Below, piece by piece: positions 1 through 18,905 of a stretch of 23,000 bases of DNA (its first letter is position 1; each line of letters starts with the position of its first letter). The position numbers were made by a program, and so were the translations under genes. The stretch comes from Elusimicrobiota bacterium (GTDB taxonomy: Bacteria > Elusimicrobiota > Elusimicrobia > UBA1565), in NCBI GenBank assembly GCA_043819795.1, contig JBDREN010000036.1:1-23000 (forward strand), written 5' to 3'. The notes beneath the pieces were generated by a model. It worked only from the letters and a program-made list of their open reading frames with translations, searched no databases and was not told the DNA's origin.

Positions 1-708
1 GCCCGCCGCGGGTCGCCCGGACGGAGGCGCGGGCCGGCCGTCCCGCGCGCCGTCGAGGTCCATCCCGGTCAGGCGGTTGAGAAGGCTCGATTTGCCGGCG
101 TTGGTGTAGCCGATGATCGCGACCGCCGGCATCGGGATCGACCGGCGCCGGCGCCGCTGGAGCCCGCGGTCGCGCTCCAGCCGCCGTATCGCGCGCTTCA
201 GATAGCCGATCCGGTATTGGATATGCCTGCGTTCGTACTCGATCTGACGCTCGCCGGGGCCGCGCGTGCCGATGCCGCCGACCTGCTGCGAATACGCGCG
301 CCAGCTGCCGGTCAGGCGCGGGAGCATGTAGGAGAGCTGCGCGAGCTCGACTTGGAGCTCCCCCTCCTTGGTCCGGGCTCGCCTGGCGAAGATGTCGAGG
401 ATCAGCCGGGTCCGGTCGACGATCTTGGCCCCGATCTCGCTCTCCAGGTGGAGCTGCTGGGCCGGAGAAAGGTCCTCGTCAAAGATGACCGTGCGGACGC
501 GGTGCGCGCGCGCGGAGCCGGCGATCTCGGAGACCTTGCCGGACCCGATCAGCGAGCGGGGATGGAAGCGCTCGATGCGCTGCGTGAACGTCTCGGCAAC
601 GTCCCCGCCCGCGGTCTCGGCCAGGCGCGTGAGCTCGTCGAGGGCCGCCTGCTCGTCTAGCGGGTCGCGGCCCTTCTGGAATACCCCGACGAGGATTACT
701 TTTTCCAT
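1..708 (-). CDS. hflX: GTPase HflX, N-terminal part (runs off the window start)
   Basis: Not in the ORF track; translated by hand from ATG at 708: MEKVILVGVFQKG...DELTRLAETAGG...IFDEDLSPAQQ...VDRTRLILDIFARRARTKEGELQVELAQLSYMLPRL...GGIGTRGPGERQIE...VAIIGYTNAGKSSLLNRLT. These are HflX signature motifs plus the G1 box. The start overlaps the miaA stop. Confidence 0.97.
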   Translation of the reverse strand, partial: MEKVILVGVFQKGRDPLDEQAALDELTRLAETAGGDVAETFTQRIERFHPRSLIGSGKVSEIAGSARAHRVRTVIFDEDLSPAQQLHLESEIGAKIVDRTRLILDIFARRARTKEGELQVELAQLSYMLPRLTGSWRAYSQQVGGIGTRGPGERQIEYERRHIQYRIGYLKRAIRRLERDRGLQRRRRRSIPMPAVAIIGYTNAGKSSLLNRLTGMDLDGARDGRPAPPSGRPAAG

Positions 709-1709
709 GCCGCTATCCGGAGGGCCTCGGCCCCGCTCGCCCTCGCTCGCGGGGCCCAGGCGTTGAGGGCTTCCGCCACGAGGCTTTCCTGGTCCATCCC
801 CCCCTCGAGCCAGTGCGCGGGGGTCTGCCGCCGGAACCAGGTCCGCTGCCTCTTCGCGTAGGCCACGGTGCTCTTCACCATCCTCTCAAGCCCTCGCTCG
901 GCCGAGAGCTCCCCGCGCGCGCACGCGACCGCCTCGGGATAGCCCAGGCACCGGAAGCCCGGCTCGTCGCCGGTGTAGCGGGAGTCGATGAGCGCGGCTA
1001 CCTCTTTGATCATGAGAGGGAACATCTCCTCGGCCCTGCCGCGGATGCGCCGCTTGAGGGCCTCGTTCTCCCAGCGGATCCCCAGGTAGACGGGCGCGGA
1101 GCCCGCGGAGGCCGTCCGGCGGCCGGCGCGGAGCGTCCATTGTTCGGAGATGGGCCGCCCCGTCAGCTCGATGACCTCGAGAGCGCGCACGACCCGCCGG
1201 AGGTTGGCGGCCGGGATGGCTTTCGCCGCCGCGGGGTCGCGGCGCGCGAGCTCCCGGTGGAGGGACCGGCGGCCTTCCGGTCCGGCTTCGGCCCGGCGTT
1301 CGATGCGCGCGCGGACGGCCGCGTCGCGTCTGGGCAGCGGGTCGAGGCCCTCGATCAGGCTCCGGACGTAGAGGCCCGTCCCCCCCGCCACGATGCCGGG
1401 CCGGCCGCGCCCCGTGATGCCGTCGAGGACCGGCCGCGCCAGCTCGGCGAAGCGGCCGGCGTCGGTCGGCTCCGCGGGGTCGAGCGCGTCGACGAGGTGG
1501 TAGGGGACGCCTTCCACCCGGTAGACGCCGCCGTCCCAACTCCCTGCGGGCTTCGCCGTCCCCGCGTCCAGGAGCCTGTACATCTGGCCCATGTCGGCCG
1601 AGACGATCTCGCCGCCCAGGCGTTTCGCGAGCGCCAGGGCGAGCGCGGTCTTTCCTGAGGCTGTCGGTCCGACGACGGCTATTGTGCGCGCTAGAACTTC
1701 GGAGGCCAA
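696..1709 (-). CDS. miaA: tRNA dimethylallyltransferase MiaA
   Basis: Motifs VVGPTASGKT, EIVSADMGQMYR-LDAGTAKP, VAGGTGLY, RVVRALEV, LGYPE, YAKRQRTWF. The start is uncertain: TTG at 1709 was chosen because it lies just upstream of the P-loop, while the ORF track extends to 1766. Confidence 0.95.
   Translation of the reverse strand: MASEVLARTIAVVGPTASGKTALALALAKRLGGEIVSADMGQMYRLLDAGTAKPAGSWDGGVYRVEGVPYHLVDALDPAEPTDAGRFAELARPVLDGITGRGRPGIVAGGTGLYVRSLIEGLDPLPRRDAAVRARIERRAEAGPEGRRSLHRELARRDPAAAKAIPAANLRRVVRALEVIELTGRPISEQWTLRAGRRTASAGSAPVYLGIRWENEALKRRIRGRAEEMFPLMIKEVAALIDSRYTGDEPGFRCLGYPEAVACARGELSAERGLERMVKSTVAYAKRQRTWFRRQTPAHWLEGGMDQESLVAEALNAWAPRARASGAEALRIAAWKK
720..777. repeat. Family A 45-bp repeat, about 1.3 units, in the miaA 3' end
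   Basis: gagggcctcggccccgctcgccctcgctcgcggggcccaggcgttgagggcttccgcc; encodes AEALNAWAPRARASGAEAL. Confidence 0.85.
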
Positions 1710-2218
1710 TGAGGGGCCTTCTGCGTCTTGGTGCAAAGGAGGTGGAAACTGCATTTCGGGACGCACGCTTCGGGGAGCCCGAGGGAGATGCGCGTCTTGC
1801 AGTCGATATCGTCGTCGGCCATCTGCGCGATCTTCTTCCGGTATTTCATGGCGATCTTCGTGAACTGGATGCCGACGACGAACGTCTCACCCTTCTTCTG
1901 GACACGGACGACCTTCCCCTCTACCGGGACTTGGTCGAGTCCGGGGATGGTGAGCGTCATCTTGAAGATCTTGGCGTGCGGCGGGGCCAGGAAGGTCACG
2001 AGGGACATGCCCCCTTCCGATAGGTTCGTCAGGATGGCGGGCTGCGTGCGCAGGTGTTTCGGGACGACGGCCGCGGACTTGGCGTCATCCTTGGACTTCC
2101 GCTTGTCCTGTATGTCGGGGGCGTAGCGCAGGACGATCGGCTCGACCAGATCGCTGACGACGGCCACCCGGGGGTGGCGGCGACGCTCGGCGGAACGCTT
2201 GCCGTTGGGATGCTTCAT
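1691..2218 (-). CDS. PilZ-domain (putative c-di-GMP-binding) protein with a C-terminal 4-Cys tail
   Basis: RxxxR motif (ERRRHPR), D/NxSxxG motif (NLSEGGM) and PilZ-like strands (VEGKVVRV...VGIQF). ATG at 2218 follows a sigma70-like promoter. Confidence 0.85.
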   Translation of the reverse strand: MKHPNGKRSAERRRHPRVAVVSDLVEPIVLRYAPDIQDKRKSKDDAKSAAVVPKHLRTQPAILTNLSEGGMSLVTFLAPPHAKIFKMTLTIPGLDQVPVEGKVVRVQKKGETFVVGIQFTKIAMKYRKKIAQMADDDIDCKTRISLGLPEACVPKCSFHLLCTKTQKAPHWPPKF

Positions 2219-2225
2219 CGAATCC

Positions 2226-2254
2226 ACGATACCAATAAATCCTTCGGCGCGCAA
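2226..2254 (-). promoter_or_regulatory. sigma70-like promoter for PilZ gene-miaA-hflX (probably leaderless)
   Basis: Minus strand TTGCGC-17 nt-TATCGT with an extended TGn element, then 7 nt to ATG 2218. No Shine-Dalgarno in between. Confidence 0.65.
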
Positions 2255-2261
2255 GCGATTT

Positions 2262-3635
2262 CTAGACCGTGGGCGAGCACTTGAGCGCGGTCGCGCTGCG
2301 GCCGATCACCTCGGCCTCGACGATGCGGCCCGTCGCGTCCGGCTTCGCCTCGTCAAGGCGCGCCCTGAAGTGGTACTGGGTGCGGCCGTCGGTGGGCGTC
2401 TCCAGGAGGATGCGCACGCGTTGGCCGGCCATGCCTTCGAGGTGGACGCGGGTCCGATCCTCCACGACGGCCAGCAGGCGCCGCAGGCGCCGCGCTCTCT
2501 CCTGCGCGGGGACGGCGGGGCCCATGTCGGCCGCTTCCGTCCCCGCGCGCGGGGAGAAGGCGGTGCAGTAAGCGGCGCAGAAGTCCGCCTCGCCCACGAG
2601 ACGGAGCGTCGCCGCGAAGTCGTCGGCCGTCTCGCCCGGGAAGCCCGCGATGATGTCGGTCGAGAGAGCCAGATCCGGGATGAGGACGCGCAGCGCCGAG
2701 ATCTTGTCGAGGTAATCGCGGACGGTGTAGCCGCGCCGCATGGCCTTGAGGATGCGGTCGGAGCCGCTCTGCACCGGGAGGTGGAGGTGCGGGACCACGC
2801 CGGAGCACTCCGCCATCGCTCGCATCATGCGGTCGTCGAGGTGGAACGGGTGCGCGCTCGTGAAGCGGACGCGGCTGACGCCGTCGACATCGCCGACCGC
2901 GCGCAGCAGGTCCGCGAAGTCGCGGCCTTTCGGGTCGCGGTAGCTGTTGACGGTCTGCCCCAGCAGGAACACCTCCCTGGCTCCGCCGGCGACGCGGGAA
3001 CGGACCTCGTCGAGGACGGTCTCCAGGGGGTGGTATGTCTCGCGCCCGCGCACGGAGGGGACGATGCAGTAGGTGCAGCGGTAGTTGCATCCGCGCATGA
3101 TCGTCACGAACGAGCTGATCTCTGAGGGCGCGGCCCCCCCCGGCGCCGCCCCGCTCGTCCCCGCTCGCGGGACCCAGGAGTGGAAGGCTTCCGCCCCGCT
3201 CGTCCCCGCTCGCGGGACCCGGGCGTGGAAGGCTTCCGCCTCGTTCCGGCATCCGCCGTCCTCGGGCCCCCATCCGTAGCGTCGGCGCAAGGCTTCGTCG
3301 AGGATCTCGGGATACCGCTCGATCGATCGCGCCCCCACGACCAAGTCCACGTGCGGGAAGCGGCGCGCGATCCATGCGCCGATCCGCTCCGCGGCGCAGC
3401 CGGCGACGACGACGTAGCGGCCGGGGCGCCGCTCCTTCCAGGCGCGGAGGCGTCCGATCTGCGAGACGGCCCGGTCCTCGGCGTGCTGGCGCACCGTGCA
3501 GGTGCTGACGATGACGGCGTCGGCGTCGTCGAGGTCCCGGGTGCGCGAGAACCCCCGGCGCAGCCATGGACGGGACATCTCCGCGCAGTCCGCGGCGGAC
3601 ATCTGGCAGCCGAAGCTGATCGTATGGAGCTTCAT
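2262..3635 (-). CDS. miaB: tRNA methylthiotransferase MiaB (radical SAM), carrying an internal repeat insertion
   Basis: UPF0004 Cys motifs (FGCQM, STCTVR, AGCAA), radical SAM CxxxCxxC (GCNYRCTYCIVP), LLGQTVNSY, HLPVQSGS, TDIIAGFPGET and a C-terminal TRAM-like region. Near miaA. Confidence 0.93.
   Translation of the reverse strand: MKLHTISFGCQMSAADCAEMSRPWLRRGFSRTRDLDDADAVIVSTCTVRQHAEDRAVSQIGRLRAWKERRPGRYVVVAGCAAERIGAWIARRFPHVDLVVGARSIERYPEILDEALRRRYGWGPEDGGCRNEAEAFHARVPRAGTSGAEAFHSWVPRAGTSGAAPGGAAPSEISSFVTIMRGCNYRCTYCIVPSVRGRETYHPLETVLDEVRSRVAGGAREVFLLGQTVNSYRDPKGRDFADLLRAVGDVDGVSRVRFTSAHPFHLDDRMMRAMAECSGVVPHLHLPVQSGSDRILKAMRRGYTVRDYLDKISALRVLIPDLALSTDIIAGFPGETADDFAATLRLVGEADFCAAYCTAFSPRAGTEAADMGPAVPAQERARRLRRLLAVVEDRTRVHLEGMAGQRVRILLETPTDGRTQYHFRARLDEAKPDATGRIVEAEVIGRSATALKCSPTV
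3146..3246. repeat. Family A 45-bp repeat, 2 tandem units plus a partial, inside miaB
   Basis: Units 3146-3190 and 3191-3235 are 43/45 identical; encodes AEAFHARVPRAGTSG-AEAFHSWVPRAGTSG. Confidence 0.95.
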
Positions 3636-3648
3636 TTCTCGCCGGACA

Positions 3649-3990
3649 CTACGCCAACTCGAAGTAGGTGATGCGCATCTCCTCGTCGGAGCGGACCTCG
3701 CGGCTGTTGGCGACGGCCGCGTTCGCGCGGATCTCCTCGAGCGTCATCCCCAGCCGCGTCGCGGTCCCCTCGTCGAAGTCGCCCAGCCGTCGGACTTCGG
3801 ATCCCGTGATCCGGATCATTCCGCGGGTCTTGCCGGTCTTGTCGACGAGGCGGAGGGTCTCGCCGACCGCGGCCTCCTCCGGGTCGTAAGCCGGACAGGT
3901 GGTCGCGGTCTTGCGACCGGCGAGGATCCGCTGGATCAGCAGCTCGCCCAGGTCGTTGTCCCCGTACCAGCCGAAGCGATAGGCGCGCAT
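3649..3990 (-). CDS. ASCH-domain protein
   Basis: 113 aa; ILAGRKTAT matches the ASCH GxKxxT motif; typical size and ...ITYFEL ending. Possible extended -10 (TGcTAGAAT) about 40 nt upstream. Confidence 0.75.
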   Translation of the reverse strand: MRAYRFGWYGDNDLGELLIQRILAGRKTATTCPAYDPEEAAVGETLRLVDKTGKTRGMIRITGSEVRRLGDFDEGTATRLGMTLEEIRANAAVANSREVRSDEEMRITYFELA

Positions 3991-4051
3991 CCGTTGTCCC
4001 GGGCCCGAACGGGCCGGCCCGACGTCTCAATTCTAGCAAAAGAGGACGGGG

Positions 4052-7000
4052 TCAGCGGGACCCAGGCGTTGAAGGCTTCCGCCCCTCGGGCCCTTGCCCT
4101 CGGGACCCAGGCGTTGAAGGCTTCCGCCGCAGAGCGGTGCGCATCTCCTCCAGCAGACGGTCGGCTTCGGCGCTCTGCGCGTCGAGCAGGCCTCGGGTCG
4201 AGTAGCGCTCGATGTAGTGCAGCTCGCTCAGCGCCCGCAAGGGCGCCAGCTCGGGCCGGCTTCGGGCGACGGCGTCCGCGAACTCTCGAGGGGTCTCCCA
4301 GAAACGGCGGCGCAGGCCGGCGCGGTGGAGCAAGGCGAGCGCGCGCTGGAACCGGCCGGCGGGCGGCCGGCGGAGCCGGCGCAGGCCCGCGAGGACGGCC
4401 GATCCCAGGCCGACGAGCAATAGGGCGGCGCCGGCCGTCTTGAGCAGGCGCCGCATCCAGCGTTCGACGGCGGGCCCGCTCAACGAGAGGCGGAACCTGT
4501 AGAACGTATTGCGCTGCACGAAGCGGTCGTAGCCGATGATGTGCCGGTACCATTTGAACTGGAGAGCGGTGAAGTAGCGGCCGAGGCGCGCGAGCGCGGC
4601 GCCGGTCCTCGCGGAGAAGGTGTCGCTCGGCGGTGTGGCGTCCACCGTCACCCAGCCCGTCCCGTCCACGTAGGCCTCGACCCATGCATGGGCTTGGCCC
4701 TGCCGGACGTCGTAGAACTTGCCGTACTCGTTCCACTCGTCGACGAGAAAGCCGGTCACCAGCCGCGTGGGGACGCCCGCCGCCCGCAGCAGGACGGCGG
4801 CGGCGGTGGCGAAGTATTCGCAGTTGCCGCTGCGGACCCCGAACAGGAAGTCGCCGAGCGTGCGTCCGGCGTCGTCGGAGTAGGTGCTGTAGGCGTAGCC
4901 GTCCCGGAGGTGGCTGAGCACCGCGGCGATCTTGTCTCCGGGAGTCGCGGCCTCGCGCGTGAGGCGCTCGGCGAGTCCGCCGAGGCGCGGATCGCCGTCG
5001 GGGACCTGGAGGAACCGCTCGCGGAGGATGCGCTTGTAGCCGAAGACGTGATCGCCGAACGAGATCGCGGCGGCCGGCGCGCCATGGCCCTTCAATGAGG
5101 ACCCGGCCGCCGGGGGGCGGCTTCCGTAGAGCCGGTAGCGGATGCCGGACAGGTAGGGCGAGCCGAAGTACGCCGTGTCGGTATAGTCGAAATAGGCCGC
5201 GTTGTCCGGCTCCTCTATGGCGCTCAGGCCGTGGGTCGTGAACAGGACCGCGGAGTTGAGCGGGAACATCGTGACCTCCATCGCCGGCCCGCGGACGGAC
5301 CCGCCGGGGAATACGAGCCTCGTCCCCTGGCGCGGCGTCCAGGCCCGGCCCGCCGCGGTGAACAGCAGGCGCTCGTCCACGCGGTACCGGAAGTCCAGAG
5401 CTGTCTTGCTCCAGCGCCGCCCGTCGAACCGGTCGAACGCGCTTCCGCGCACCCGGAGCAGGGGCTCCGGCGGCGCGGACCCGGCGTCGCCGAGCGGCCG
5501 GATGCGCATGACGCGCGCGCTCGACTTCTTGAGGCGGCCGAAAAAGCCCAGGGATACGTTCTCCGTGAACTGCACGACGAAGTCGGCCTTCGGCCGTCGC
5601 TTGTCGAGGCCCATGGCGATGAAGGGGTTCATGCGGCGCAGGGGCTCCAGCCGGGGCGTCGCGGCGAACAAGAGGCCGGCCGTCCCGAGGCAGGCGACCA
5701 GAAGCCCCCCCAGCGCCGCGACGGGGAGCGCCGCTTTCCTTCCGCCCGATTCGGCGAGCATCAGCCATCCCGCGGCGAAGACGGCGTAGAGCAGGAAGAA
5801 GAGGAAGTACCAGAGCGAGATCGTCTGGCCCGACACCAGGAAGAACGCGAGGAAGAATACCAGGAACACCTGCCGCAGCTCCCGCAGCTCCTCCTTTCTG
5901 CTGAGGAACCGGTTGACGAGCAGGTAGATGAGCAGATGCGTGTTCGCCAGCGTGATGCCGCTGTAATGCCAATCGAAGAGCAGGATGTAGGCCAGCGTGC
6001 CCAGCGAGGCCAGCGTCCAGAAGGCGTCGGGCAGGCGGAAGCTTCCCGCTCGGTCCATCCGCCAGGCCAGAGCGAAAAACGGGGCGACCGCCGCCAGGAA
6101 CACCGGGGAGATATCCTCGATGAGAAAGAGCGAAGCGTAGACGAGCACGCCTCCGAGATACGTCCATCCCAGCATCCGCTCGGGCACGCCCGCCTTCGGC
6201 TCCCGCGTCCGGCCGGCGCCGCCGGGGGCGGCGGCGACGGGCCGCGGGTCTTTCCCCGGACCGAGCAGGGCGAGCGCGCGCAGCAGGCGGTCGAGGTGCG
6301 GCAGGCCCTTCCCGTAGCCCACCTCCGACTCCGGGGTGATCAGCCGGACCTCCCCCCCGGTCTGGATTGCGTGCTTGCAGGCCGAGGCCGCCTCCACGAT
6401 GTACCGCTCCGCCGCGGCGCCTCCTCCGGTGAGCGCGACGCGGACCGTGACCTTCGATCCGGCGGGTTCGGCGTACTCGTTGACCAGCACCTCGCCCGAG
6501 CGCGCCGTCAACTTCCAGTTGATCAGGCGCGACTCGTCCGACGGGTCGTAGTCGCGTATCCCGTAGAGCTCGTCTCCCGCGCCCTTGCGCGGCCTCAGCC
6601 GCCCGCTCTCGGACACGTCCGCCGAGAGATCGCTCACCGACCGGGCCTCTCGCGGACGCGGGAACGCGACCCCGATGGCGTGGCGCACGGGGACGGACCG
6701 CTCCAGCAGGCCGAACGGGAACGCGCTTCGGAGCCTCAGTCCCTCGAGCCGGTTGCGCCCGCGGTGCGGCAGGGCCGTCTCGATGCTCGCGGATCGCGTC
6801 TCGCCGGCGTCGATCCGGTCGATGAGAGCCTCGGCATCGGCGGCGCCGAGCCGCAGGCCGATCATGCGGACCGGCCATCGCCCTCCGTTTAGCACGCTCA
6901 CCTCGAGCGGGAACGGGTTCCCGATGAAGACGTGTTCGGGGAAGCGGGCGGTCGCCCTCAGGCCGCGCATGTCGGCCCACAGGGCGGCGGCCGAGACGCC

Positions 7001-7120
7001 CAGCGCCGCCAGCATCAGGCTATAGAGGAGGTAGAGCAGGTTGTTGCCGCTCGCCAGGGCCGCCGCCAGAGTCAAGAGCAGCAGCCCCAGGACGATCCGG
7101 CCGCTCCGGGTGAGCCGCAT
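4052..7120 (-). CDS. Fused DUF58 + DUF3488/transglutaminase (TgpA-like) + DUF4129-like membrane protein
   Basis: N-terminal DUF58 motifs (FPFGLLE, ELYGIRDYDPSDESRLINWKLTARSG), a multi-TM region, then a transglutaminase-like triad (GNCEYFATA, AHAWVEAY, VDATP) and a WETPREF tail. Directly downstream of MoxR. Confidence 0.88.
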   Translation of the reverse strand: MRLTRSGRIVLGLLLLTLAAALASGNNLLYLLYSLMLAALGVSAAALWADMRGLRATARFPEHVFIGNPFPLEVSVLNGGRWPVRMIGLRLGAADAEALIDRIDAGETRSASIETALPHRGRNRLEGLRLRSAFPFGLLERSVPVRHAIGVAFPRPREARSVSDLSADVSESGRLRPRKGAGDELYGIRDYDPSDESRLINWKLTARSGEVLVNEYAEPAGSKVTVRVALTGGGAAAERYIVEAASACKHAIQTGGEVRLITPESEVGYGKGLPHLDRLLRALALLGPGKDPRPVAAAPGGAGRTREPKAGVPERMLGWTYLGGVLVYASLFLIEDISPVFLAAVAPFFALAWRMDRAGSFRLPDAFWTLASLGTLAYILLFDWHYSGITLANTHLLIYLLVNRFLSRKEELRELRQVFLVFFLAFFLVSGQTISLWYFLFFLLYAVFAAGWLMLAESGGRKAALPVAALGGLLVACLGTAGLLFAATPRLEPLRRMNPFIAMGLDKRRPKADFVVQFTENVSLGFFGRLKKSSARVMRIRPLGDAGSAPPEPLLRVRGSAFDRFDGRRWSKTALDFRYRVDERLLFTAAGRAWTPRQGTRLVFPGGSVRGPAMEVTMFPLNSAVLFTTHGLSAIEEPDNAAYFDYTDTAYFGSPYLSGIRYRLYGSRPPAAGSSLKGHGAPAAAISFGDHVFGYKRILRERFLQVPDGDPRLGGLAERLTREAATPGDKIAAVLSHLRDGYAYSTYSDDAGRTLGDFLFGVRSGNCEYFATAAAVLLRAAGVPTRLVTGFLVDEWNEYGKFYDVRQGQAHAWVEAYVDGTGWVTVDATPPSDTFSARTGAALARLGRYFTALQFKWYRHIIGYDRFVQRNTFYRFRLSLSGPAVERWMRRLLKTAGAALLLVGLGSAVLAGLRRLRRPPAGRFQRALALLHRAGLRRRFWETPREFADAVARSRPELAPLRALSELHYIERYSTRGLLDAQSAEADRLLEEMRTALRRKPSTPGSRGQGPEGRKPSTPGSR
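4056..4128. repeat. Family A 45-bp repeat, about 1.6 units, in the transglutaminase 3' end
   Basis: The 28-mer cgggacccaggcgttgaaggcttccgcc is identical at 4056-4083 and 4101-4128; encodes RKPSTPGSRGQGPEGRKPSTPGSR. Confidence 0.95.
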
Positions 7121-7129
7121 CCCGGGCCT

Positions 7130-8089
7130 CTATCGGGGGGCGGGAACGCGCTGGAGGACGTCCGCGACGAGGCGCTCCGCCTCCTTGACGCGGGCCATCC
7201 CGTACTCCCCGCTGTCGAGCAGCAGACGGTGGGCCGCCACGGGTACGGCCAGGCGCTTGATGTCGTCGGGCACGCAGTAGTCGCGTCCGGCCACGAGCGC
7301 GAAGGCCATCGCGGCGCGACAGAGAGCCTGCGAGCCGCGCGGGCTGAGCCCCAGCTTGATCCGCCTGTCCTCCCGGGTGGCGCGCGCGATCGCGACGATA
7401 TAGTCCATCAGCTCATCGTCCATGTGCACCGTCGCCACCCGCTCTTGAAGCCGGGTGACCTCAGCCATGCTCAGCGCGGGCTCGAGGGGCCCCAGGCGCT
7501 CGTTGATGTCCCCGCCCCGCAGGATGCTCTTTTCGTCCGCCGGCGCGGGATAGCCGATCTGCACGCGCATCAGGAAGCGGTCGAGCTGCGCCTCGGGAAG
7601 CGGGAACGTACCGTGGTACTCGACCGGGTTCTCGGTGGCGATCACCAGGTACGGCTCCTCGAGGCGATAGGTCTTCCCCTCGATGGACACCTGCCGCTCG
7701 TTCATCGCCTCGAGGAGGGCCGACTGGGTCTTGGGGGTCGAGCGGTTGATCTCGTCGGCAAGGACCACGTGGCTGAAGATGGGCCCGGGCCGGAACTCGA
7801 AGCGTTGCTCGCGCTGGTTGTAGAGGTTGAGGCCGAGGATGTCCGAGGGCAGCAGATCGTTGGTGAACTGGATGCGCCGGAAGCTCGCGTCGATGGATTT
7901 CGCCAGCGCGAGAGCGAGCAGCGTCTTGCCGATGCCGGGGACGTCCTCGATGAGGAGGTGCCCGCGGGCGATCAGCGTGACGACCGTCTCCAGGACGGCC
8001 TCCTCCTTGCCTATCAGGACGCTGTTGATCCCCGCGATGAGTTTCGCCAAGCCGGCGGTCTCGGCGGTCGTTTCCATGGGCGTTTCCAT
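7130..8089 (-). CDS. MoxR-family AAA+ ATPase (DUF58/transglutaminase-associated)
   Basis: HLLIEDVPGIGKT, RIQFTNDLLPSDILG, LADEINRSTPKTQSALLEAM, FPLPEAQLDRF. Start placed at ATG 8089, directly after a consensus promoter; alternative ATG at 8077. Confidence 0.95.
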   Translation of the reverse strand: METPMETTAETAGLAKLIAGINSVLIGKEEAVLETVVTLIARGHLLIEDVPGIGKTLLALALAKSIDASFRRIQFTNDLLPSDILGLNLYNQREQRFEFRPGPIFSHVVLADEINRSTPKTQSALLEAMNERQVSIEGKTYRLEEPYLVIATENPVEYHGTFPLPEAQLDRFLMRVQIGYPAPADEKSILRGGDINERLGPLEPALSMAEVTRLQERVATVHMDDELMDYIVAIARATREDRRIKLGLSPRGSQALCRAAMAFALVAGRDYCVPDDIKRLAVPVAAHRLLLDSGEYGMARVKEAERLVADVLQRVPAPR

Positions 8090-8095
8090 GGAAAA

Positions 8096-8124
8096 AGTAT
8101 GTCGGGAAACCGGCCGTTTGTCAA
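8096..8124 (-). promoter_or_regulatory. sigma70 promoter of the second moxR (probably leaderless)
   Basis: Minus strand TTGACA-17 nt-CATACT, then 6 nt to ATG 8089. Confidence 0.75.
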
Positions 8125-8254
8125 CGCGACCAAGTCCACGCCGGGGCCGGGCGCCGAAGTCCGGTCGCCGGAAGGGCGACGCGATTCTTCCGATGGGTTT
8201 CCCGACGGTCGGACGGTGCAAGCGCCGCGGGGCGAGCTTGCGGCGGTGAAAGGG

Positions 8255-8548
8255 CTATGGGTTGGCCGGCGAGATCGGCGTGAGCGGCACAGCCGGGACT
8301 CCCGCGCCGCCGGAGGCTCGGGGAGCGGACGCGGAGGGCTCTGCGGCCGCCTTGATTTTCCCGGCCTGGGACTTCTGCCGGCGGGACCGGCGGCGCCTGG
8401 CCCTGCGCCCGAGTCGCCCACGGGGCGCGGGCTTCGCGCCGACCTCCGAGCCGGCCCCGGCGGCGGGCTGCGGAACGTCGCCCTGCCCCCAGGCGGCGGC
8501 GGCCAGGAGCAGCGACAGGCATGCGGCCAGCATCGAATGAGCGATCAC
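8255..8548 (-). CDS. Small hypothetical secreted, basic, low-complexity protein
   Basis: Signal-peptide-like MLAACLSLLLAAAAWG followed by an Arg/Ala/Pro-rich tail. In-frame GTG at 8548 lies 6 nt after a promoter -10. Confidence 0.55.
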   Translation of the reverse strand: MIAHSMLAACLSLLLAAAAWGQGDVPQPAAGAGSEVGAKPAPRGRLGRRARRRRSRRQKSQAGKIKAAAEPSASAPRASGGAGVPAVPLTPISPANP

Positions 8549-8554
8549 CTTATT

Positions 8555-8583
8555 AAGATAACAGACCCCTGTTAAGAAATCAA
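8555..8583 (-). promoter_or_regulatory. sigma70-like promoter with an embedded palindromic operator
   Basis: Minus strand TTGATT-17 nt-TATCTT with extended TGn. The spacer carries TAACAG-N4-CTGTTA (8559-8574). AT-rich patch in a GC-rich context. Confidence 0.6.
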
Positions 8584-9425
8584 TAAGCGCCCTCACCGCC
8601 GGGGCGTGCCGCGGCCGGCCATATCTCTTCGAGCGCGGCGGCGGCGATCCAGCCCTTGAGTCCCTCCTGCAGGACGCCGATCTCGATCCAGTCCCCTCTC
8701 ACGTCGAGCTGGGATACGCGGCGGCCCTCGGGAACCTTGAAGCTCACCGGGAAATTCCCGCCGGGTCCGCTGCGCACTTCGGCGTCATGGACGAGGACGA
8801 CTGCCGGGGAGCGCATCTGCGTGAGCTGGCGCAGTCCCCACCAGCCTCCGGCGAGCGCCCAGAACGCGATCGCCCCGATCAGCCAAGCGCGCAGGGGCTC
8901 GCGCCAGCGGTCCCGCAGCAGCATGGCCGAGCCGAGCAGCAGCCCGGCCCAGAAACCCACCCAGTGCAGCATGGCCAGCTCGGTCTCGCCGAGCAGGTGA
9001 TACAGCACGAACAACGCCGGCGGCGTCCCGGGCGGGATGAGGGCCTCGCCGGCCCTCCGGAGCGCGAAATCGAGGTTGCGGCGTATGTCGGCGTCGCGGG
9101 GCATGAGCCGGAACGCGCGCAGGTAGGACGCGATCGCGCGCCCGAGATTGCCCGGCCGCCCGTCCCGGAAATAGGCGTTGCCGAGGTTGAAGTGGAGGTC
9201 GGGGCTCCGGGGGCGCTGGGCGAGCAGCTGGCGGTAGAGCCCGCCGGCCTCCTGGAATCGCGAGGCCGCGTAGAGCCGGTTCGCCTCTTCGAAGGTGTCC
9301 TGCGGCGTGTCGCCGAGCGCGAAGGCCGACGGCCAGAGCAGCATCCCTAATAGGAAGGCGTTCGCCAGCGGCGCTCGTCGCGGCGGCTTCAACGCCCGGG
9401 CCTCGCGAGAATGGGAGAGCCTCAT
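8580..9425 (-). CDS. batE: BatE-like TPR + TM + SH3 protein
   Basis: FEEANRLY...FNLGNAYFR...GRAIASYLRAFRLMPRDADIRRNL TPR, two TM helices, C-terminal SH3b-like VRSGPG...EGRRV...GDWIEI...GWI. ATGA-coupled to batD. Confidence 0.8.
   Translation of the reverse strand: MRLSHSREARALKPPRRAPLANAFLLGMLLWPSAFALGDTPQDTFEEANRLYAASRFQEAGGLYRQLLAQRPRSPDLHFNLGNAYFRDGRPGNLGRAIASYLRAFRLMPRDADIRRNLDFALRRAGEALIPPGTPPALFVLYHLLGETELAMLHWVGFWAGLLLGSAMLLRDRWREPLRAWLIGAIAFWALAGGWWGLRQLTQMRSPAVVLVHDAEVRSGPGGNFPVSFKVPEGRRVSQLDVRGDWIEIGVLQEGLKGWIAAAALEEIWPAAARPGGEGAY
9387..9420. repeat. Family A partial copy in the opposite orientation, in the batE 5' end
   Basis: cttcaacgcccgggcctcgcgagaatgggagagc matches the reverse complement of the miaA copy at 27/34. 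Confidence 0.65.
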
Positions 9426-11299
9426 TTCCGCATCTCCTCCTCGAGCGCCGCCACGAGCTCGCTCACGCCGTCGGCCAGGTAGGCGGTCTCGCGCCCGGCG
9501 GACGGCGCGAAACGGAACACCTCGAGCTCCCCCCAGAGCCTCCGGACCTGCTCGATGTGGCCGTCGGGCAGCTTCGGGTACCTGGTTCTCAGGAGCTGCT
9601 GGGTCTCGCGAAGGGTCAGTCCGAAGGCCGGCCGGTTCAGCTTGTCGGCGAGGTAGCTCGACAGCGCGTCGGCCAGCATGGCGGCCGCGCGCTGGGGCTC
9701 GCCGGCCGCCCTGCTCTTGCGGACGCGCTGACGGGCGCTGGACAGCGCGCGGCGGGACCGCGCGCCGACCGGGTCATGGAGCAGCCACTCGCGGTAAAAA
9801 TAGACCGCTAGACTCGCCAGCAGCAGCGCCAGCGGGAGCAGATGGAACCATCCGGCCCGCGCTACGGACGCGGCGGCGCGATCCAGCCGGGGCTCGCGCA
9901 GGACGCGATGGATGTGCCGGATGTTCTCGGCGACCGTCGTTATCGCGGCGCCCTCGCCGGTGGCCAGGAATCCGACCGGGGCCGGGGAGGTCTCCCCCGC
10001 CTCGACCCGGAGCTTGACGGGGCGCGTCCGGAGGCTCACGTAGCGCTTTCCCGCGGGATCGAAGTAGTGGAACGGGATCGACGGTATGACGAGGCGTCCG
10101 GATACCTTGGGCACGAGGATGGTCTTGTAGACCTTCGATCCCGAGACGCCGCCGGCGCCCTTCGCCTGGTTGAGGGAGCTCGCCGTCTCATAGACGCGGA
10201 ACTCCTGAAGCTCGGGGAGGTCCAGGTCCCCCAGAGTCTTGAGGTTGCCCCGGCCCTTCACGGTCACCGTCAGGTTGACGGCCTCGCCCACGGTCGTCTC
10301 GGTCGTGTCGACCTCCGCCCGGATGCTGTAGCTTCCGACGGCCCCGGTGAAGCCGGCGGGTTTTCCGGACTCCGGCAGCGCCCGCGTCGTGACCGTTATC
10401 GGACGGGTGTTCAGCGTCCGCGGTTCGGACGACCTGACGCCCTGCGAGAAGAACTGGCGGAAGAAGTCGCCGGCATAGGGGTCGACCGAGACGTCCCGGC
10501 GGACCTGGCAGCGGACGGTGCCGGGTCCGATCGTCAGCCGGCCCGGCTCTATGGGGAAGAGGGCTATCTGGATCTCGGAGAACATGTAGCGCCGTCCCTC
10601 GTAGACCGTCTGCTGGGGCTGTTTGGGCGGCAGGTCCTCGCTGAAGAAGCCCTTCGTCTCGGGCGGGGACCATTCCGCGTTGCCGAGCAACGGCACGGCG
10701 GTATGGAAACGCACGGTGAGCAGGACCTGCTCCCCCACATAGGGGGCGTGCTTGTCCGCCTCGGCGGTCACGAACACGTCCGGAGGGGCCTCCTTCCCGT
10801 TCTGCCTGCCGGCGGGCGCCGGCCGGCGGCGCGTCCCCCCGCGGGGAGAGGCGCCGCCTGACGGCGTCCGCTGGGCTTGGGGACTCGGTCCCGGCGCCTG
10901 GGCGCCCGCATACCGCGTGATCGTGACTTCGATGGGTTCTGTCGAGGACTTCTGCGACCCCTCCGAGACCGTGATCGGCGGGATGGAGGCGTTGCCGATC
11001 AGGCGCGGGACCAGGACGTAGTTGTACTGCACGGAGCTCGAGACCCTTCCGTTGACGAACGAGAAGTTCTGGCTCCGCCCCGCGGAATGCACGTTGAAGC
11101 GCGGCATGGAGGGCATGCGCGGCTCGGGCAGGCTGGTGCGGTCCCCCGAGACCGTGACGGTGAGCACGAGCTGCTCATTGAGCGCCACGGAGGCCTTGTT
11201 CACGCTCGCCGTGATGGACAGCGCCTCGGCCTGGGCCGCCGCCGCGAAGGCGAAAGAGGCGAGCAGGACGAGCGTTCCCCCCGCGGGCCGGATCCTCAC
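9422..11299 (-). CDS. batD: BatD-like oxygen-tolerance protein
   Basis: Signal peptide, repeated BatD modules (YVGEQV, FTGAVG, VGEAVNLTVTVKGRGN, FHYFDP) and a C-terminal TM. GTG at 11299 overlaps the upstream TGA and has an SD GGAGGT. Confidence 0.85.
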   Translation of the reverse strand: MRIRPAGGTLVLLASFAFAAAAQAEALSITASVNKASVALNEQLVLTVTVSGDRTSLPEPRMPSMPRFNVHSAGRSQNFSFVNGRVSSSVQYNYVLVPRLIGNASIPPITVSEGSQKSSTEPIEVTITRYAGAQAPGPSPQAQRTPSGGASPRGGTRRRPAPAGRQNGKEAPPDVFVTAEADKHAPYVGEQVLLTVRFHTAVPLLGNAEWSPPETKGFFSEDLPPKQPQQTVYEGRRYMFSEIQIALFPIEPGRLTIGPGTVRCQVRRDVSVDPYAGDFFRQFFSQGVRSSEPRTLNTRPITVTTRALPESGKPAGFTGAVGSYSIRAEVDTTETTVGEAVNLTVTVKGRGNLKTLGDLDLPELQEFRVYETASSLNQAKGAGGVSGSKVYKTILVPKVSGRLVIPSIPFHYFDPAGKRYVSLRTRPVKLRVEAGETSPAPVGFLATGEGAAITTVAENIRHIHRVLREPRLDRAAASVARAGWFHLLPLALLLASLAVYFYREWLLHDPVGARSRRALSSARQRVRKSRAAGEPQRAAAMLADALSSYLADKLNRPAFGLTLRETQQLLRTRYPKLPDGHIEQVRRLWGELEVFRFAPSAGRETAYLADGVSELVAALEEEMRK

Positions 11300-13053
11300 C
11301 AGTCCACCTCCGGCTTGCGCTCGTCGGGGCGCGCGGACTTCCGCTGGACCGGCTGCCGGCGCAGGGCCTCCCGCTCTTTTTCCTTGACGGCGCGGAGGAT
11401 GCGTTCGGCGTCCTCTTTCGAGAGGCCTTGCGGCCGAGGACGGTCCTTCGACGGCGGCTGGGAGGATGGATCTTCCTTCTTCTGGTTCTTCTGATCCTTC
11501 TTCGAGTCTTTCTTCTGCTTCTTCTTCTTTGGCGGCTTCAAAGTCAGCACGAGGTTGTGCCGGCAGTCCTCGTCGGACGGGTCGAGCATGAGGCACCGCT
11601 TGTAGGCCTCCGCGGCCTCCTGGAATTTTTCCTCCCGGTACAGGGAGTTCCCGAGGTTGTAGTAGGCTTTCGGGGCGATGCGGACTCCTTTCTTCGGCCG
11701 GGACGCTCCGCTCCCTTTGGATCGTCCGGGATCCAGCTCGCGCGCCAGCTCCTCGTAGAGCTCAACCGCGCCCCCGAAGTCGCCAAGCTTGTATAGGGCC
11801 GCCCCCGCGTTGAAGCGGGACTTGGGATCGCTCGGATCGGCCTTTTCGTATTGCTTCAGGGCTTCGCCGTAGTCCTCGCCGCTGTACTGCTTGTTGCCCT
11901 TCCAGAGCCGCAGGTCCGACGGCATGGCCCGGCTCGAGGTAGGTATGGCGAGCAGCAGCAGCGCGGCCAGCGCGGAGGTCTTGGGACCGCCCCTCGGGCC
12001 CTCGTTCGCGGGGCTCAGGCGCGCAGGGCTTCCGCCGCGGCGGGCCGGGCGCGCGTGCCGGAGCTCGGGCAGCAGCAGCTCCGCGAGCAGCAGCAGGAAG
12101 GCCGCCAGAAGCGGGAACCGGTAGCGGTTCTTGTAGCGGTTCACCGAGCCGGCCTGGATATCGGACTTCTCCAGCTCGCCGATGGCGCGGACGATGGCGC
12201 TCGCCTCCGTGTCGCCCGGGCCGGCGCGGTAGTAGGCGCCCTTGGAGGCGGCCGCGAGCTGGATCAGCCCGCTCTCGCCGAGGCGGGTGACGACGGTCTT
12301 GCCGTCCTTGTCCTTCTTGTACGCGACGACGCGGCCCGAGGAGTCCTTGACAGGGATCGGCTCCCCCTCGGGCGTGCCCATGCCGATGATAAAGAGGTGT
12401 ATGCCCCCCTCGGCGGCGGTCCGGGCCGCGACGAGCGGATGGCTGCCGTGGTCCTCACCGTCGGTGAGCAGCACGAGCGCTTTATGGCCGGGGTAGCGGC
12501 CGAGCATCCGGGTCCCGAGCTCGATGGCCTTGCCGAGGGCGGTGCCGGCCTGCGGGATCATGCCGGTCCGGAGCCGGCGCAGGAGCGACTTCGCCGCTTC
12601 CCGGTCCGTCGTAAGCGGGCACTGGACGAACGCCTCGCCCGCGAAGGCGATCAGCCCGACGCGGCTCCCCGACAGCTCGTCGATGAGGATCGCGAGCGCG
12701 TCCTGGGCGCGCCGCATGCGGTTCGGCTTGAGATCCTCGGCGAGCATGGACTCGGACGTGTCGACCGCGATGACGACCTGCGTCCCCTTCCCCTGGGAAG
12801 TCACGAGCTCCACGCCCCACTGCGGCCCGGCCAGCGCCGCGAGCAGCATGACCAGCGCTCCGGCCCCCAAGGCGTATTTGAGGCGGCGGGCCTTGATCGA
12901 CTCAGCCGCGAAAAGCCGGAGGAGGATTTCCGGGCGGGCGAAGGTCTCCCGGAGCCTGCGGGTCCGGCGCTCGGACCAGACGGCCAGACCGGCCGCCAGC
13001 GCGGCCGCCAGGAGCATCCATCCCAGATATGCCGGGTCCCTGAAGAGCCCCAT
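11296..13053 (-). CDS. BatB (VWA)-BatC (TPR) fusion protein
   Basis: LAGPQWG, MIDAS DTSESM, PLTTD, LLTDGEDH; TM; then TPRs (FNAGAALYK, AYYNLGNSLY, DEDCRHNL), a K/Q-rich linker and the BatC-type ending AERIL...EVDW. Confidence 0.87.
   Translation of the reverse strand: MGLFRDPAYLGWMLLAAALAAGLAVWSERRTRRLRETFARPEILLRLFAAESIKARRLKYALGAGALVMLLAALAGPQWGVELVTSQGKGTQVVIAVDTSESMLAEDLKPNRMRRAQDALAILIDELSGSRVGLIAFAGEAFVQCPLTTDREAAKSLLRRLRTGMIPQAGTALGKAIELGTRMLGRYPGHKALVLLTDGEDHGSHPLVAARTAAEGGIHLFIIGMGTPEGEPIPVKDSSGRVVAYKKDKDGKTVVTRLGESGLIQLAAASKGAYYRAGPGDTEASAIVRAIGELEKSDIQAGSVNRYKNRYRFPLLAAFLLLLAELLLPELRHARPARRGGSPARLSPANEGPRGGPKTSALAALLLLAIPTSSRAMPSDLRLWKGNKQYSGEDYGEALKQYEKADPSDPKSRFNAGAALYKLGDFGGAVELYEELARELDPGRSKGSGASRPKKGVRIAPKAYYNLGNSLYREEKFQEAAEAYKRCLMLDPSDEDCRHNLVLTLKPPKKKKQKKDSKKDQKNQKKEDPSSQPPSKDRPRPQGLSKEDAERILRAVKEKEREALRRQPVQRKSARPDERKPEVDW
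11987..12036. repeat. Family A copy at the BatB-BatC fusion joint
   Basis: 11987-12031 matches miaA unit 728-772 at 36/45, ungapped; encodes GGSPARLSPANEGPRGG. Confidence 0.8.
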
Positions 13054-13110: not shown

Positions 13111-14109
13111 TCATGGTATCCTCAGCAGCCATGTTCGCGTCAGCAGCATCTCGAGCCCGAGCAGGAATACGGCCGGCAGAAGGATGTAGGCGTAGAGGTC
13201 GTCGAAGGAGACGATCTCGGGCCGCTCGTATTGGGTCTTCTCGAGCCGGTCGATCTCGGCGTAGATCTGCTTGAGCTCGTCGAGGTTCGTCGCGCGGAAG
13301 TACTTGCCGTCGGTCTCCGCCGCGACCTTCAATAGGGTGTCCTCGTCGAGCTCGTCCGGGATCGAAACCAGCCGCCTTCCGAAAACGGGATCGTCCACCG
13401 GGACGAGGGCCTCGCCTCGCTTCCCGGTCCCGATCGCGTAGAACTTGATCCCGAAGGTGTGCGCGGTCTTGGCCGCGGTGGTCGGGTCCACGAGCCCGGT
13501 GTTGCTCCTTCCGTCGGTCAGCAGGATGGCGACCTTGCTCCGCCCTTCGCTGTCCTTGAGATGGTTCACGGCCGCGGCGATCCCGTCGCCGATGGCCGTG
13601 CCGTTGCTGCGCGTCATTCCGGGGTGGACGTCCTCAAGGAAGCCGAGGAGCGCGTCGTAGTCCAGCGTCAGCGGACAGGTGAGCAGCGGATCCCCTCCGA
13701 ATACGACGATGCCGATGCGGTCCGAGGCGCGCCCGCGGACGAACTCCCGCGCGGCGTTCTTGGCGGCCGCCATCCGGTCGAGGGGATCGAAGTCGATCGC
13801 CTGCATGCTCGTCGAGGTGTCGAGCACGAGCAGGATGTCGATGCCCTCGGCCAGCCCGACCGCCTGCCGCGTGACCGTCTGCGGCCGCGCCAGCGCGAGG
13901 GCGGCGAGAATCAGCACCGCCCACTTCAGGAGAGTCGGCGTCCAGCGCACCCACAGGCCGGATGCCCGGGAGGTGAGCGTTCGCAGGCCGCTCGCGTCGG
14001 GGAAGGTCATGGAGGCCCGGCTCCCGAGGACCTCCCGCAAGGCGACCCCGAGGGCCGCGAGCGCGGGCAGCAGGAGCAGAAGCCAGAGCGGCTGTTCGAG
14101 CCGCATCAT
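13111..14109 (-). CDS. batA: BatA-like VWA-domain membrane protein
   Basis: N-terminal TMs with LALARPQ, MIDAS DTSTSM, DRIGIVVF, GTAIGDG, ILLTDGRSNTG, GKYFRA, IDRLEKT. SD GGAGG at 14117-14121. Confidence 0.9.
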   Translation of the reverse strand: MMRLEQPLWLLLLLPALAALGVALREVLGSRASMTFPDASGLRTLTSRASGLWVRWTPTLLKWAVLILAALALARPQTVTRQAVGLAEGIDILLVLDTSTSMQAIDFDPLDRMAAAKNAAREFVRGRASDRIGIVVFGGDPLLTCPLTLDYDALLGFLEDVHPGMTRSNGTAIGDGIAAAVNHLKDSEGRSKVAILLTDGRSNTGLVDPTTAAKTAHTFGIKFYAIGTGKRGEALVPVDDPVFGRRLVSIPDELDEDTLLKVAAETDGKYFRATNLDELKQIYAEIDRLEKTQYERPEIVSFDDLYAYILLPAVFLLGLEMLLTRTWLLRIP

Positions 14110-15200
14110 GAGTTAGCCTCCAAGTCAGCCTCCCCCCCGCGGGGGGAGGCTAAAGTCTGGGGGGGCGATGTCGTTATATTGGCCTTTCCTCCTTTTGTGT
14201 CCTCTCCATGCAGGGATTCTGACACAGCAACAGCCCCCCCTACATTAGCGGCCCCCCCTGGGGGGGCCGCTGACAACATGCGCACGATGCGCTTCGCGGT
14301 CTCGCAATCGGAGCGGGACTCGGGCTCGCCGGGGATAAAGCGCGCGAATTTGGCCAAGTCGCAGCGGTCGAGCAGGGATTTGGTCAGGGCGCGCGCCTCG
14401 GGGTCGATCTGCGCGGCGATCAGCCGCCGCTGCAGGTCGTGGGTCGTCATCGACAGAGCCAGCAAGCCGCAGCGCCGCTCGATGTAGAGGCGCAGGATGT
14501 CCGAGACGCGATCGTAGTACTCCTTGACCGGCAGCCCCTGGCCCAAGAGGGCGTCGAGCTCGTCGAGGGCGATCTGCTCAGGGGTGCGGGTGTCACTGGG
14601 GCCGGTAAAACCGCCGATCTCGACGGGACGTCGTGAACGTCGCCATCGGCGGAAGCCCGCGGCGCCGGCGGTCAGGAGGAGCAGGGCCGCCAGGAGCGCC
14701 CACGGCCACAGCCTCGGGACCAGCGGGCCCTTGATGTCCCGGATGTCGCCGGTGTCGCCGGGGCCGGGCGCGGGCGAACTGAGCGTCACGCGCAGGGGCG
14801 GGCTGGTCAGCGTCCGCTCGGCCCCGTCCGGGCCGCGCAGCCTCCAGCGCAGCTCCGGCAGCGTCTGCTCGCCGATATCGAACGCCGTGAGGCGGAGCCG
14901 GAGGGGCTGCGTGCTCGCGCCGCCGCGGGGCTCGGGCGGGCCCATCTCCGCGGCCAGGATCTTGAAGGGCCCGGTGTCCTGGGACTCGACAGGAGCCAGC
15001 AGCTCGAGCGGATCGGGGCTCTCCACGGCTCCTACGACCTCGAAGGGAGACCCGATGAGGACCGGCCCGGCGGGCGTCTCCCAGCGGAAGCTGCCGGTAG
15101 CCGAGGCCGGGCCCGGGGGCGACACGGGGGCTGGCTCGACCCGCCAGGCCAGGCATGCCAGCAGAGCCAGCGACGCGAGGGTGGTCCGCGGGGGCCTCAA
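14106..15200 (-). CDS. Bat-operon membrane protein (DUF4381-like) with a repeat-derived C-terminal extension
   Basis: Signal peptide, DIRDIKGP motif before a TM helix, LRLYIERR...TT...DLAKFA cytoplasmic domain. Position between DUF58 and batA, with 4-nt overlaps on both sides. Confidence 0.75.
   Translation of the reverse strand: MRPPRTTLASLALLACLAWRVEPAPVSPPGPASATGSFRWETPAGPVLIGSPFEVVGAVESPDPLELLAPVESQDTGPFKILAAEMGPPEPRGGASTQPLRLRLTAFDIGEQTLPELRWRLRGPDGAERTLTSPPLRVTLSSPAPGPGDTGDIRDIKGPLVPRLWPWALLAALLLLTAGAAGFRRWRRSRRPVEIGGFTGPSDTRTPEQIALDELDALLGQGLPVKEYYDRVSDILRLYIERRCGLLALSMTTHDLQRRLIAAQIDPEARALTKSLLDRCDLAKFARFIPGEPESRSDCETAKRIVRMLSAAPPGGAANVGGAVAVSESLHGEDTKGGKANITTSPPQTLASPRGGEADLEANS
14124..14274. 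repeat. Family B inverted pair of palindromic REP-like units (MITE/BIME-like, 151 bp)
   Basis: 25-bp palindromes at 14127-14151 and 14247-14271, each with an inward-facing G7 tract, around a lower-GC core. Confidence 0.8.
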
Positions 15201-18787: not shown

Positions 18788-18905
18788 GATGTCCAGCGGA
18801 TGTCCAGCGGCCCCCCCGCGGGGGGGCGCTCAAGTAGGGGGGCGATTTCACTCTGAATGCCTCTCCCCCTCCACCTCCCGTCTCCCTCCCCCTGGGGGAG
18901 GGAGA
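18788..18905. repeat. Family B intergenic inverted pair of palindromic units
   Basis: agcggcccccccgcgggggggcgct-caagta-ggggggcgat (18806-18846), and the perfect palindrome tctccctccccc-t-gggggagggaga (18881-18905) preceded by a C-rich tract. Confidence 0.75.

Follow-up and report, generated by a model that had tools for sequence, protein, structure and literature searches.

A 45-nt repeat with a predicted hairpin lying in frame in unrelated genes of an Elusimicrobiota bacterium

A 45-nt repeat occupies five loci, all inside protein-coding genes, in a 23,000-nt stretch of an Elusimicrobiota draft genome (positions 1-23000 of contig JBDREN010000036.1, hereafter the window). It is well supported that this is a real selfish repeat inserted in frame, with an apparently new sequence family and an already known kind of behaviour. 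The draft genome comprises 4.99 Mb in 241 contigs, with a G+C content of 67% and a completeness of 90%. The 45-nt family was the top result of a repeat finder run on the window. A profile built from five window units gave 45 genome matches at E ≤ 1e-3 and none in the reversed genome at E ≤ 0.1. The iterated profile gave 49 matches at E ≤ 1e-3 and 54 at E ≤ 0.1, with none in the reversed-genome control, and a covariance model from 42 distinct copies gave 56, a number that may be a floor as all 56 scored candidates passed. The original prediction, made from the window alone, had the unit at five loci in three sense frames and one antisense frame. All of this is confirmed, with seven window copies located by profile and covariance matches (Table 1) and 49–56 genomic copies against 0 in the control. 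The weakest of the five loci, in batE (the names batE and batB-batC are ones we assume from gene order), has E = 0.005 genome-wide and 35 bits, still above the control.

Full copies are 2–11 nt away from the consensus, the closest pair is 1 base apart and no two full copies are identical; this divergence suggests that the burst of the repeat is past or old. Tandem copies keep an exact 45-nt register. Among the 54 matches there is one inverted pair, in mnmG on contig C145, the remainder being single or head-to-tail. The mnmG gene (C145:4865-5396) carries four copies. Two form the inverted pair, within an internal loop; the other two lie head-to-tail and lengthen the C-terminus by ~50 aa, into the start region of rsmG. 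Three genomic copies, including that at window 4055-4080, cease matching at position 26 (position 1 being the first G of GGAAG), and hairpin-only and internally deleted copies are also present. Core genes among the hosts include miaA, miaB, mnmG, glmM, glmU, tsaE, mfd, and addA.

In the unit, 19 nt that look unpaired precede a hairpin of 26 nt at positions 20-45. The arms of this hairpin are GYCCCGC and GCGGGRC; it has an inner stem of two pairs and a 4-nt loop, with 9–11 pairs in total. Between arms and inner stem, 18 of the 45 full copies have tandem GA/GA, and the others have different, often Watson-Crick, variants. Two-sided changes within this structure fill 22 cells against 10.7 after shuffling; 0 of 500 shuffles scored as high, and slid controls were lower. 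Folding of single copies recovered the hairpin in most of those displayed. Because of its G.A and G.T pairs, the modelled hairpin would be specific to one strand. The structure thus differs from the original prediction, in which the 5' core was said to fold and a further 17 nt were called more variable; the core fold is not the conserved one, and those 17 nt belong to the covarying 3' hairpin of 26 nt. The 19-nt unpaired part is conserved as strongly as the stem. The last 6–7 nt of the unit recur just upstream of it in less conserved form (65–80% per column at -5..-1), and its first 2–3 nt recur just downstream.

Genes were called with a home-made gene caller, which gave 3,717 genes and 87% coding DNA and reproduced the expected window genes except for two late starts. 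With 40 of the 54 copies having their midpoint in a called gene (74% against 87% coding, p = 0.007), genes appear to be tolerated rather than targeted, and the suggestion that the repeat prefers protein-coding genes is not upheld. The 40 genic copies are distributed over the sense frames as 10/13/7 and over the antisense frames as 7/3/0, so that five of the six frames are used. Deviations from the consensus are even across host codon positions 1–3 (37/416, 28/388, and 35/384, nine polymorphic columns excluded). Since five frames are used and deviations are even over codon positions, DNA and not peptide is the conserved entity, as had been proposed. Frame neutrality stands in so far as five frames are used; the sixth, an antisense frame often bearing TGA, is used by 0 of 40 copies, and a stop is present in this frame in 28 of the 54 copies. 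The other dispersed palindromes of the genome are genic in only 36 of 364 copies (15 families), and 14 of the 15 families are less than 30% genic, a contrast that is partly built in as these 15 are the top 30 k-mer families minus those at least 60% genic (protein-repeat-like).

Same-family genomes, from which 15 regions were fetched, have the window's gene cluster in synteny, and lengths were compared from anchor to anchor. At all five window sites the proteins of relatives are shorter. The MiaA tail after TWFR has 44 aa against 19–27 aa in 14 relatives, and 29 aa when the whole unit is removed. The MiaB linker has 78 aa against 34–58 aa in 13 relatives (47 in four), and 48 aa without its two units. 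Corresponding lengths are 53 aa against 27–45 aa in 7 relatives for the transglutaminase tail, 69 aa against 44–60 aa in 7 relatives for the BatB-BatC linker, and 45 aa against 20–28 aa in 8 relatives for BatE before its first TPR helix (hand count). Elsewhere in the genome, GlmM is longer than its orthologues by 18–24 aa at the unit, MnmG by 31–36 aa at the inverted pair in addition to its long tail, HldA by 29–30 aa, and OppD by about 22–26 aa, and AddA is longer at two sites. On this comparison the repeat is best described as a lineage-specific insertion absent from orthologues, presumably mobile and presumably translated. The predicted 15-aa modules are correct as in-frame additions; net inserts often measure ~12–36 aa, owing to tandems, partial copies and inverted pairs.

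Copies lie mostly at termini and linkers, as predicted. In Pfam-matched host proteins, 29 of 34 copies fall outside the best-matched stretches and 5 inside (hand tally), and alignment of MiaB to the solved structure 7MJZ places the insert between two aligned domains. The transglutaminase copies encode RKPSTPGSR twice (4081-4125 and the partial 4055-4080). The batE copy has the ATG overlapping the batD stop on one side and the predicted core of the signal peptide on the other; the ATG at 9425 is favoured because all eight relatives start batE at the batD-stop overlap. The repeat was also considered as the cause of the BatB-BatC fusion and rejected; all 7 compared relatives are fused too, so the fusion is regarded as ancestral.

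The family is narrowly distributed. The 26-nt core at ≤2 mismatches has no match in 40 related genomes. With the covariance model, 28 of 100 same-order genomes gave 1–2 weak matches (≤32 bits) and 72 gave none, against 56 in the source genome. At ≤3 mismatches, 43 of 400 genomes of the phylum had 1–5 loose matches, above the reversed-pattern control, and the source genome had 51; the phylum matches, judged without inspecting the loci, are read as codon-like chance matches. Scans of GTDB genomes, metagenomes and viral contigs for exact 25-nt matches gave 0, and the window has no Rfam match at gathering thresholds. The left 20 nt match 55 metagenome loci, none of which extends into the hairpin. 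A contig from a different study (run X2) covers 4056-4125 without any difference, and in a third study contigs of close relatives carry variant copies over 3203. Run X3 contains contigs with ~93–98% identity. Judged from these searches, the family is real and, within the searched range, appears confined to one species-level lineage. A literature search that left most subscription papers and all supplements aside found no paper on this repeat. The sequence family is apparently undescribed, as the original prediction had thought possible for the element; the phenomenon of in-frame palindromic repeats is already in print, for Rickettsia and Opitutus (see below).

Insertion sites were examined in the 37 single full copies (the 49 matches minus tandem members and partial copies). 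After removal of positions 0-44 in silico, the empty sites match GCGGGR^CGG, which is the junction of the unit's own end, at 6.6 of 9 positions against 3.2 at random sites, and 22 of 37 reach at least 7 of 9 against a background of 1.2%; this enrichment is partly circular, as the motif comes from the same copies and the profile includes those columns. Private variants common to the 5' flank and the 3' end number 174 over -6..0 against 169 after shuffling (p = 0.11), and over -3..+3 the signal is weak (p = 0.02). Target-site duplication therefore finds no clear support from this end-sharing test, and the ends look like target microhomology rather than duplication.

The 46 loci occupy 21 contigs, fewer than the expected 39 (p < 0.001), and no such clustering is seen in 14 of the 15 other families. 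A single chromosomal region for all carriers was considered and rejected, as the orthologues in relatives lie on different contigs or 260–450 kb apart. As carrier contigs are normal in G+C content (67.1% against 66.7% in other contigs) and the orthologous hosts are scattered in relatives, the loci are better read as several local clusters. When one copy per tandem is counted (40 copies), those on the same contig differ by 8.4 nt and those on different contigs by 10.1 nt (p = 0.006). This neighbour likeness is driven by the inner hairpin (p = 0.001). Of the 79 same-contig pairs, which are not independent of one another, 54 have both copies on the same strand, and so do 12 of the 15 pairs with oppositely facing genes.

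From the observed copy number, absence in relatives, frames, covariation, clustering, shared variants and junction motif, we infer, with confidence somewhat above even, that the 45-nt unit is a lineage-specific non-autonomous selfish repeat, copied locally via single-stranded DNA (ssDNA) and kept in frame at tolerant sites. An ssDNA nuclease acting in trans, of HUH/Y1 or GIY-YIG type, would recognise the hairpin and nick it; this enzyme may be unlinked, lost, or encoded in the unassembled tenth of the genome. A patch would then be copied from a same-strand donor close by, with entry and exit at microhomologies resembling the unit's own junction. Tandems and partial second copies could arise in the same way, since CGG after the unit's own 3' end makes a perfect target. 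Selection would remove inserts that shift the frame, bear stops or break the fold, so that stop-free multiples of three stay at termini and loops, and the encoded peptides would be passengers. Precedents among hairpin repeats are SRM-Ssn (PMC11893778) and REP-RAYT (PMC3733652, PMC3116915).

The nuclease and reverse transcriptase (RT) genes of the genome were searched for a mobilising enzyme. Matches were obtained to Y1_Tnp (7, at 6 loci), GIY-YIG (2), DUF559 (9), RVT_1 (4), Y2_Tnp (3), and HNH (3); IS110, serine and tyrosine recombinases lay outside this search, which was made in a genome 90% complete. The RT genes are three long open reading frames (ORFs) and one fragment. The terminal inverted repeats of four Y1 genes are unrelated to the unit, and no 45-nt copies occur at the 6 Y1 loci. 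The GIY-YIG genes are a 451-aa ORF of UvrC size and a second gene, presumably YhbQ-like from its sequence motifs, and neither is flanked by the repeat on both sides. Two degenerate copies sit in the 3' tail of the YhbQ-like gene itself, the only nuclease gene touched by the repeat. This gene was rejected as the specific mobiliser, being single-copy in 17 of 17 family genomes, 16 of which belong to relatives without the repeat family, and is best read as one more host. Directly 3' of this gene, on contig C71, lies a 140-nt tandem pair of another repeat. No linked mobiliser was found in the window, where the five hosts were scanned against Pfam and the other ORFs judged by eye, in agreement with the original statement that the window encodes no mobilising enzyme. 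The Y1, Y2, DUF559, HNH and RT loci are without nearby copies.

Several results weigh against a nuclease-driven ssDNA repeat, besides the circularity and non-independence mentioned above and the loss of the YhbQ-like gene as its mobiliser. A covariance-model scan of 26 Y1, Y2, GIY-YIG, DUF559, HNH and RT loci found copies only at that gene. The RNAalifold consensus lacks the hairpin of positions 20-45 and gives a different weak fold, and the covariation may stem from shared ancestry or palindrome correction instead of selection. In the 5' 19 nt, neighbours are no more alike than other copies (p = 0.45), and the orientation of copies has no consistent relation to contig GC skew. The inserts in hldA and addA exceed the length explained by recognisable units. 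No nucleotide-level empty site was found in relatives, whose proteins are ~50–65% identical. Inside the genome, empty sites and inverted repeats between flanks do not go beyond background among the results listed (5/54 against 7%), and in contigs of four sequencing runs, one of which (X1) may be the source sample, no 45-nt skip appeared among the 15 of 70 joints shown.

Spread could also do without a dedicated enzyme, the hairpin stalling a replisome or repair polymerase and template switching copying it to nearby same-strand sites; the same process would turn G.A-mismatched stems perfect. The lack of a linked nuclease at the searched loci, the local same-strand spread with shared variants, and the absence of clear target duplication all suit template switching, as do the several different perfected stems and the varied insert lengths (45, 72, and 90 nt, hairpin-only, internally deleted). 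We nevertheless consider it improbable, since seeds are found in many separate regions, as judged from host orthologues lying far apart in relatives, and the 19-nt unpaired part equals the stem in conservation, which is expected of a protein-recognised motif; the genome, moreover, is only 90% complete. A related and similarly doubtful proposal is an enzyme-free replicator, in which the 5' arm would pair with a GCGGGR target equal to the unit's own 3' end and the repeat would spread in cis by host replication or repair. If true, each insertion would regenerate its target, and near-random landing in coding DNA would rewrite loops and tails of dozens of core proteins.

An RNA route is very unlikely. 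Here RTs of the genome, for example those of group II intron type, would copy hairpin transcripts into DNA that then enters homologous patches, with a preference for the sense strand. The three long RT ORFs and the fragment would supply the enzyme, the G.U-type wobble and tandem G.A pairs suit RNA, and 31 of 48 loci have the sense orientation relative to the nearest gene. This excess of sense loci is modest, and part of it is to be expected given the stop-bearing antisense frame; 12 of 15 pairs with oppositely facing genes share a DNA strand, and no copy lies near any RT gene. Equally hard to credit is a signal maintained by the host, that is, a selected protein-binding or mRNA-structure element (pause, stability, uptake, nucleoid) in housekeeping operons. 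Many hosts are indeed core genes and the structure is conserved, but the repeat is missing from 16 of 16 same-family genomes, its frame, strand and position are arbitrary, its distribution is patchy, and decayed, split and truncated copies occur. An assembly or binning artefact, or low-complexity GC sequence, which a 241-contig draft with copies on only ~21 contigs might suggest, is largely refuted by the empty reversed-genome control, the equal G+C content of carrier and other contigs, the differences among copies, the synteny of host genes with relatives, and the contigs from the other two studies.

Among known repeats, the nearest in style to the 45-nt unit may be the small dispersed repeats (SDRs) of cyanobacteria. 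SDRs, in a 2008 account by Elhai et al., are said to be ~20 nt long and lineage-restricted, with a preferred target site, tandem copies and in-frame insertion. Both are thus very small lineage-restricted mobile repeats with a target preference and tandems, at ~20 against 45 nt. Two further papers mention SDRs (PMC5861425, PMC2884548).

Rickettsia palindromic elements (RPEs) resemble the family as lineage-restricted palindromic repeats with tens of copies, in frame in unrelated housekeeping genes and without a linked transposase. The original report of RPEs is reportedly that of Ogata et al. in 2000. The present repeat is likewise a dispersed palindrome in frame in unrelated ORFs whose orthologues lack the insert, and the analogy to RPEs drawn in the original prediction therefore holds. 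It differs in its length of 45 nt against about 100–150 nt, in having no conserved peptide and five frames, and in its direct tandems, local clustering and high-GC host. On sequence, it gave no Rfam match in the window and no exact 25-nt match in the GTDB scan, and no direct alignment with RPE families was made. RPEs measure ~105–150 nt and lie in frame in genes (PMC10969869, PMC3184786), and REPs (repetitive extragenic palindromes) of Opitutus terrae and RPE-4/6 of R. conorii are intragenic and add 20–30 aa at termini and linkers (PMC3733652).

GTAG/CGTC REPs are also short stem-loops; they occur as singles, dimers and groups in genes for repair and tRNA modification, at termini and linkers, and the 26-nt hairpin falls within their 20–40 nt stem-loop length. 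Their tag is absent here: GTAG or GATG stands near an end in 5 of 54 copies, and CGTC in 17 of 54, on the other strand only and overlapping the stem. GTAG/CGTC REPs are mostly extragenic and form inverted dimers, whereas the 45-nt unit is mostly genic and head-to-tail, with no adjacent RAYT. SRM-Ssn repeats have a hairpin with CCCGC...GCGGG arms, an asymmetric non-palindromic flank and non-random clustering, all of which recall our unit (PMC11893778); the NTS pattern of that system has 1 match at ≤4 mismatches, and neither GIY-YIG gene is flanked on both sides, as a small GIY-YIG (cd10448) gene would be in SRM-Ssn. REPIN-RAYT systems share a non-autonomous hairpin presumed to replicate via ssDNA and tandem clusters, yet REPINs are inverted doublets randomly placed in extragenic space (PMC3116915), while here the unit is single, genic and locally clustered, no RAYT is flanked by it and one inverted pair only is present. 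It is also unlike classical MITEs (miniature transposable elements with inverted repeats), its ends being direct, not inverted, and without a clear target-site duplication.

The window copies and their host genes are listed in Table 1.

Table 1. The 45-nt unit and its host genes in the window.
Feature	Position	Strand	Remark
45-nt unit, miaA 3' end	730..774	-	sense, AEALNAWAPRARASG
First tandem unit, miaB linker (N-terminal / radical SAM domains)	3193..3237	-	
Second miaB tandem unit	3148..3192	-	exact 45-nt register
Full unit, 3' end of transglutaminase/TgpA-like gene	4081..4125	-	RKPSTPGSRGQGPEG
Partial second unit (positions 1-26)	4055..4080	-	meets TGA stop at 4052-4054
Degenerate unit, batE 5' end	9378..9428	+	antisense, SHSREARALK
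Unit in linker of fused BatB(vWA)-BatC(TPR) gene	11989..12033	-	GSPARLSPANEGPRG
miaA (IPP transferase)	696..1766	-	Pfam PF01715; syntenic orthologues 56-61% identical
miaB (tRNA methylthiotransferase)	2262..3635	-	Pfam; PDB 7MJZ E=2e-73
DUF58/TgpA-like transglutaminase	4052..7120	-	Pfam PF01841, PF11992, PF13559
batE-like (TPR + SH3)	8580..9425	-	
batB-batC-like fusion (vWA + TPR)	11296..13053	-	

Some host genes of relatives show further features at the same sites. In relative G005, an unrelated insert brings the miaB linker to 58 aa. In G011 and G016, the empty miaB linker encodes E-N-E-A-F with DNA like the first 10 nt of the unit, possibly a pre-existing microhomology at the insertion point. 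The addA orthologue of G007 carries, at the linker used by the 45-nt unit, an in-frame CGTC/NTS-type hairpin (LLDSGFRRND), so labelled by eye against the motif in PMC11893778; independent repeats thus use the same tolerant AddA site, and in-frame repeats are not special to this genome. In hldA (C83:64246), ~45 extra nt are left once the unit is taken away, their ends forming a 9-10-nt inverted repeat, as if the unit had landed in an older palindrome.

The genome contains other dispersed palindromes too, in at least 15 families of 15–54 copies each. Several seem to match terminal inverted repeats of ~300-aa Y1 transposase genes or hairpins flanking DUF559 genes, and one other tandem repeat family is likewise clustered and half genic. 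A second, unrelated palindromic family (a hairpin of C-run, GC, and G-run), mostly intergenic genome-wide, occurs in the window at 14126-14163, 14235-14272, and 18805-18842; two of these fall in the ORF 14106-15200(-), in its open 3' part, past the stretch to which most relatives align. The window also encodes two paralogues, ~42% identical (7130-8089 and 16116-17105), and two further adjacent paralogues (17115-18403), which from their motifs we take to be MoxR-type ATPases and HEAT-repeat proteins, respectively; both pairs are kept in relatives.

The family bears on how RPE-like repeats multiply without a linked transposase. Its 45-nt size, together with the junction motif, tandem register, variants shared by neighbours and truncations at one position, makes the family testable, and the other dispersed palindromes, which stay intergenic, form an internal control within the same genome. 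The family provides a probable example of selfish DNA adding loops and tails to core proteins.

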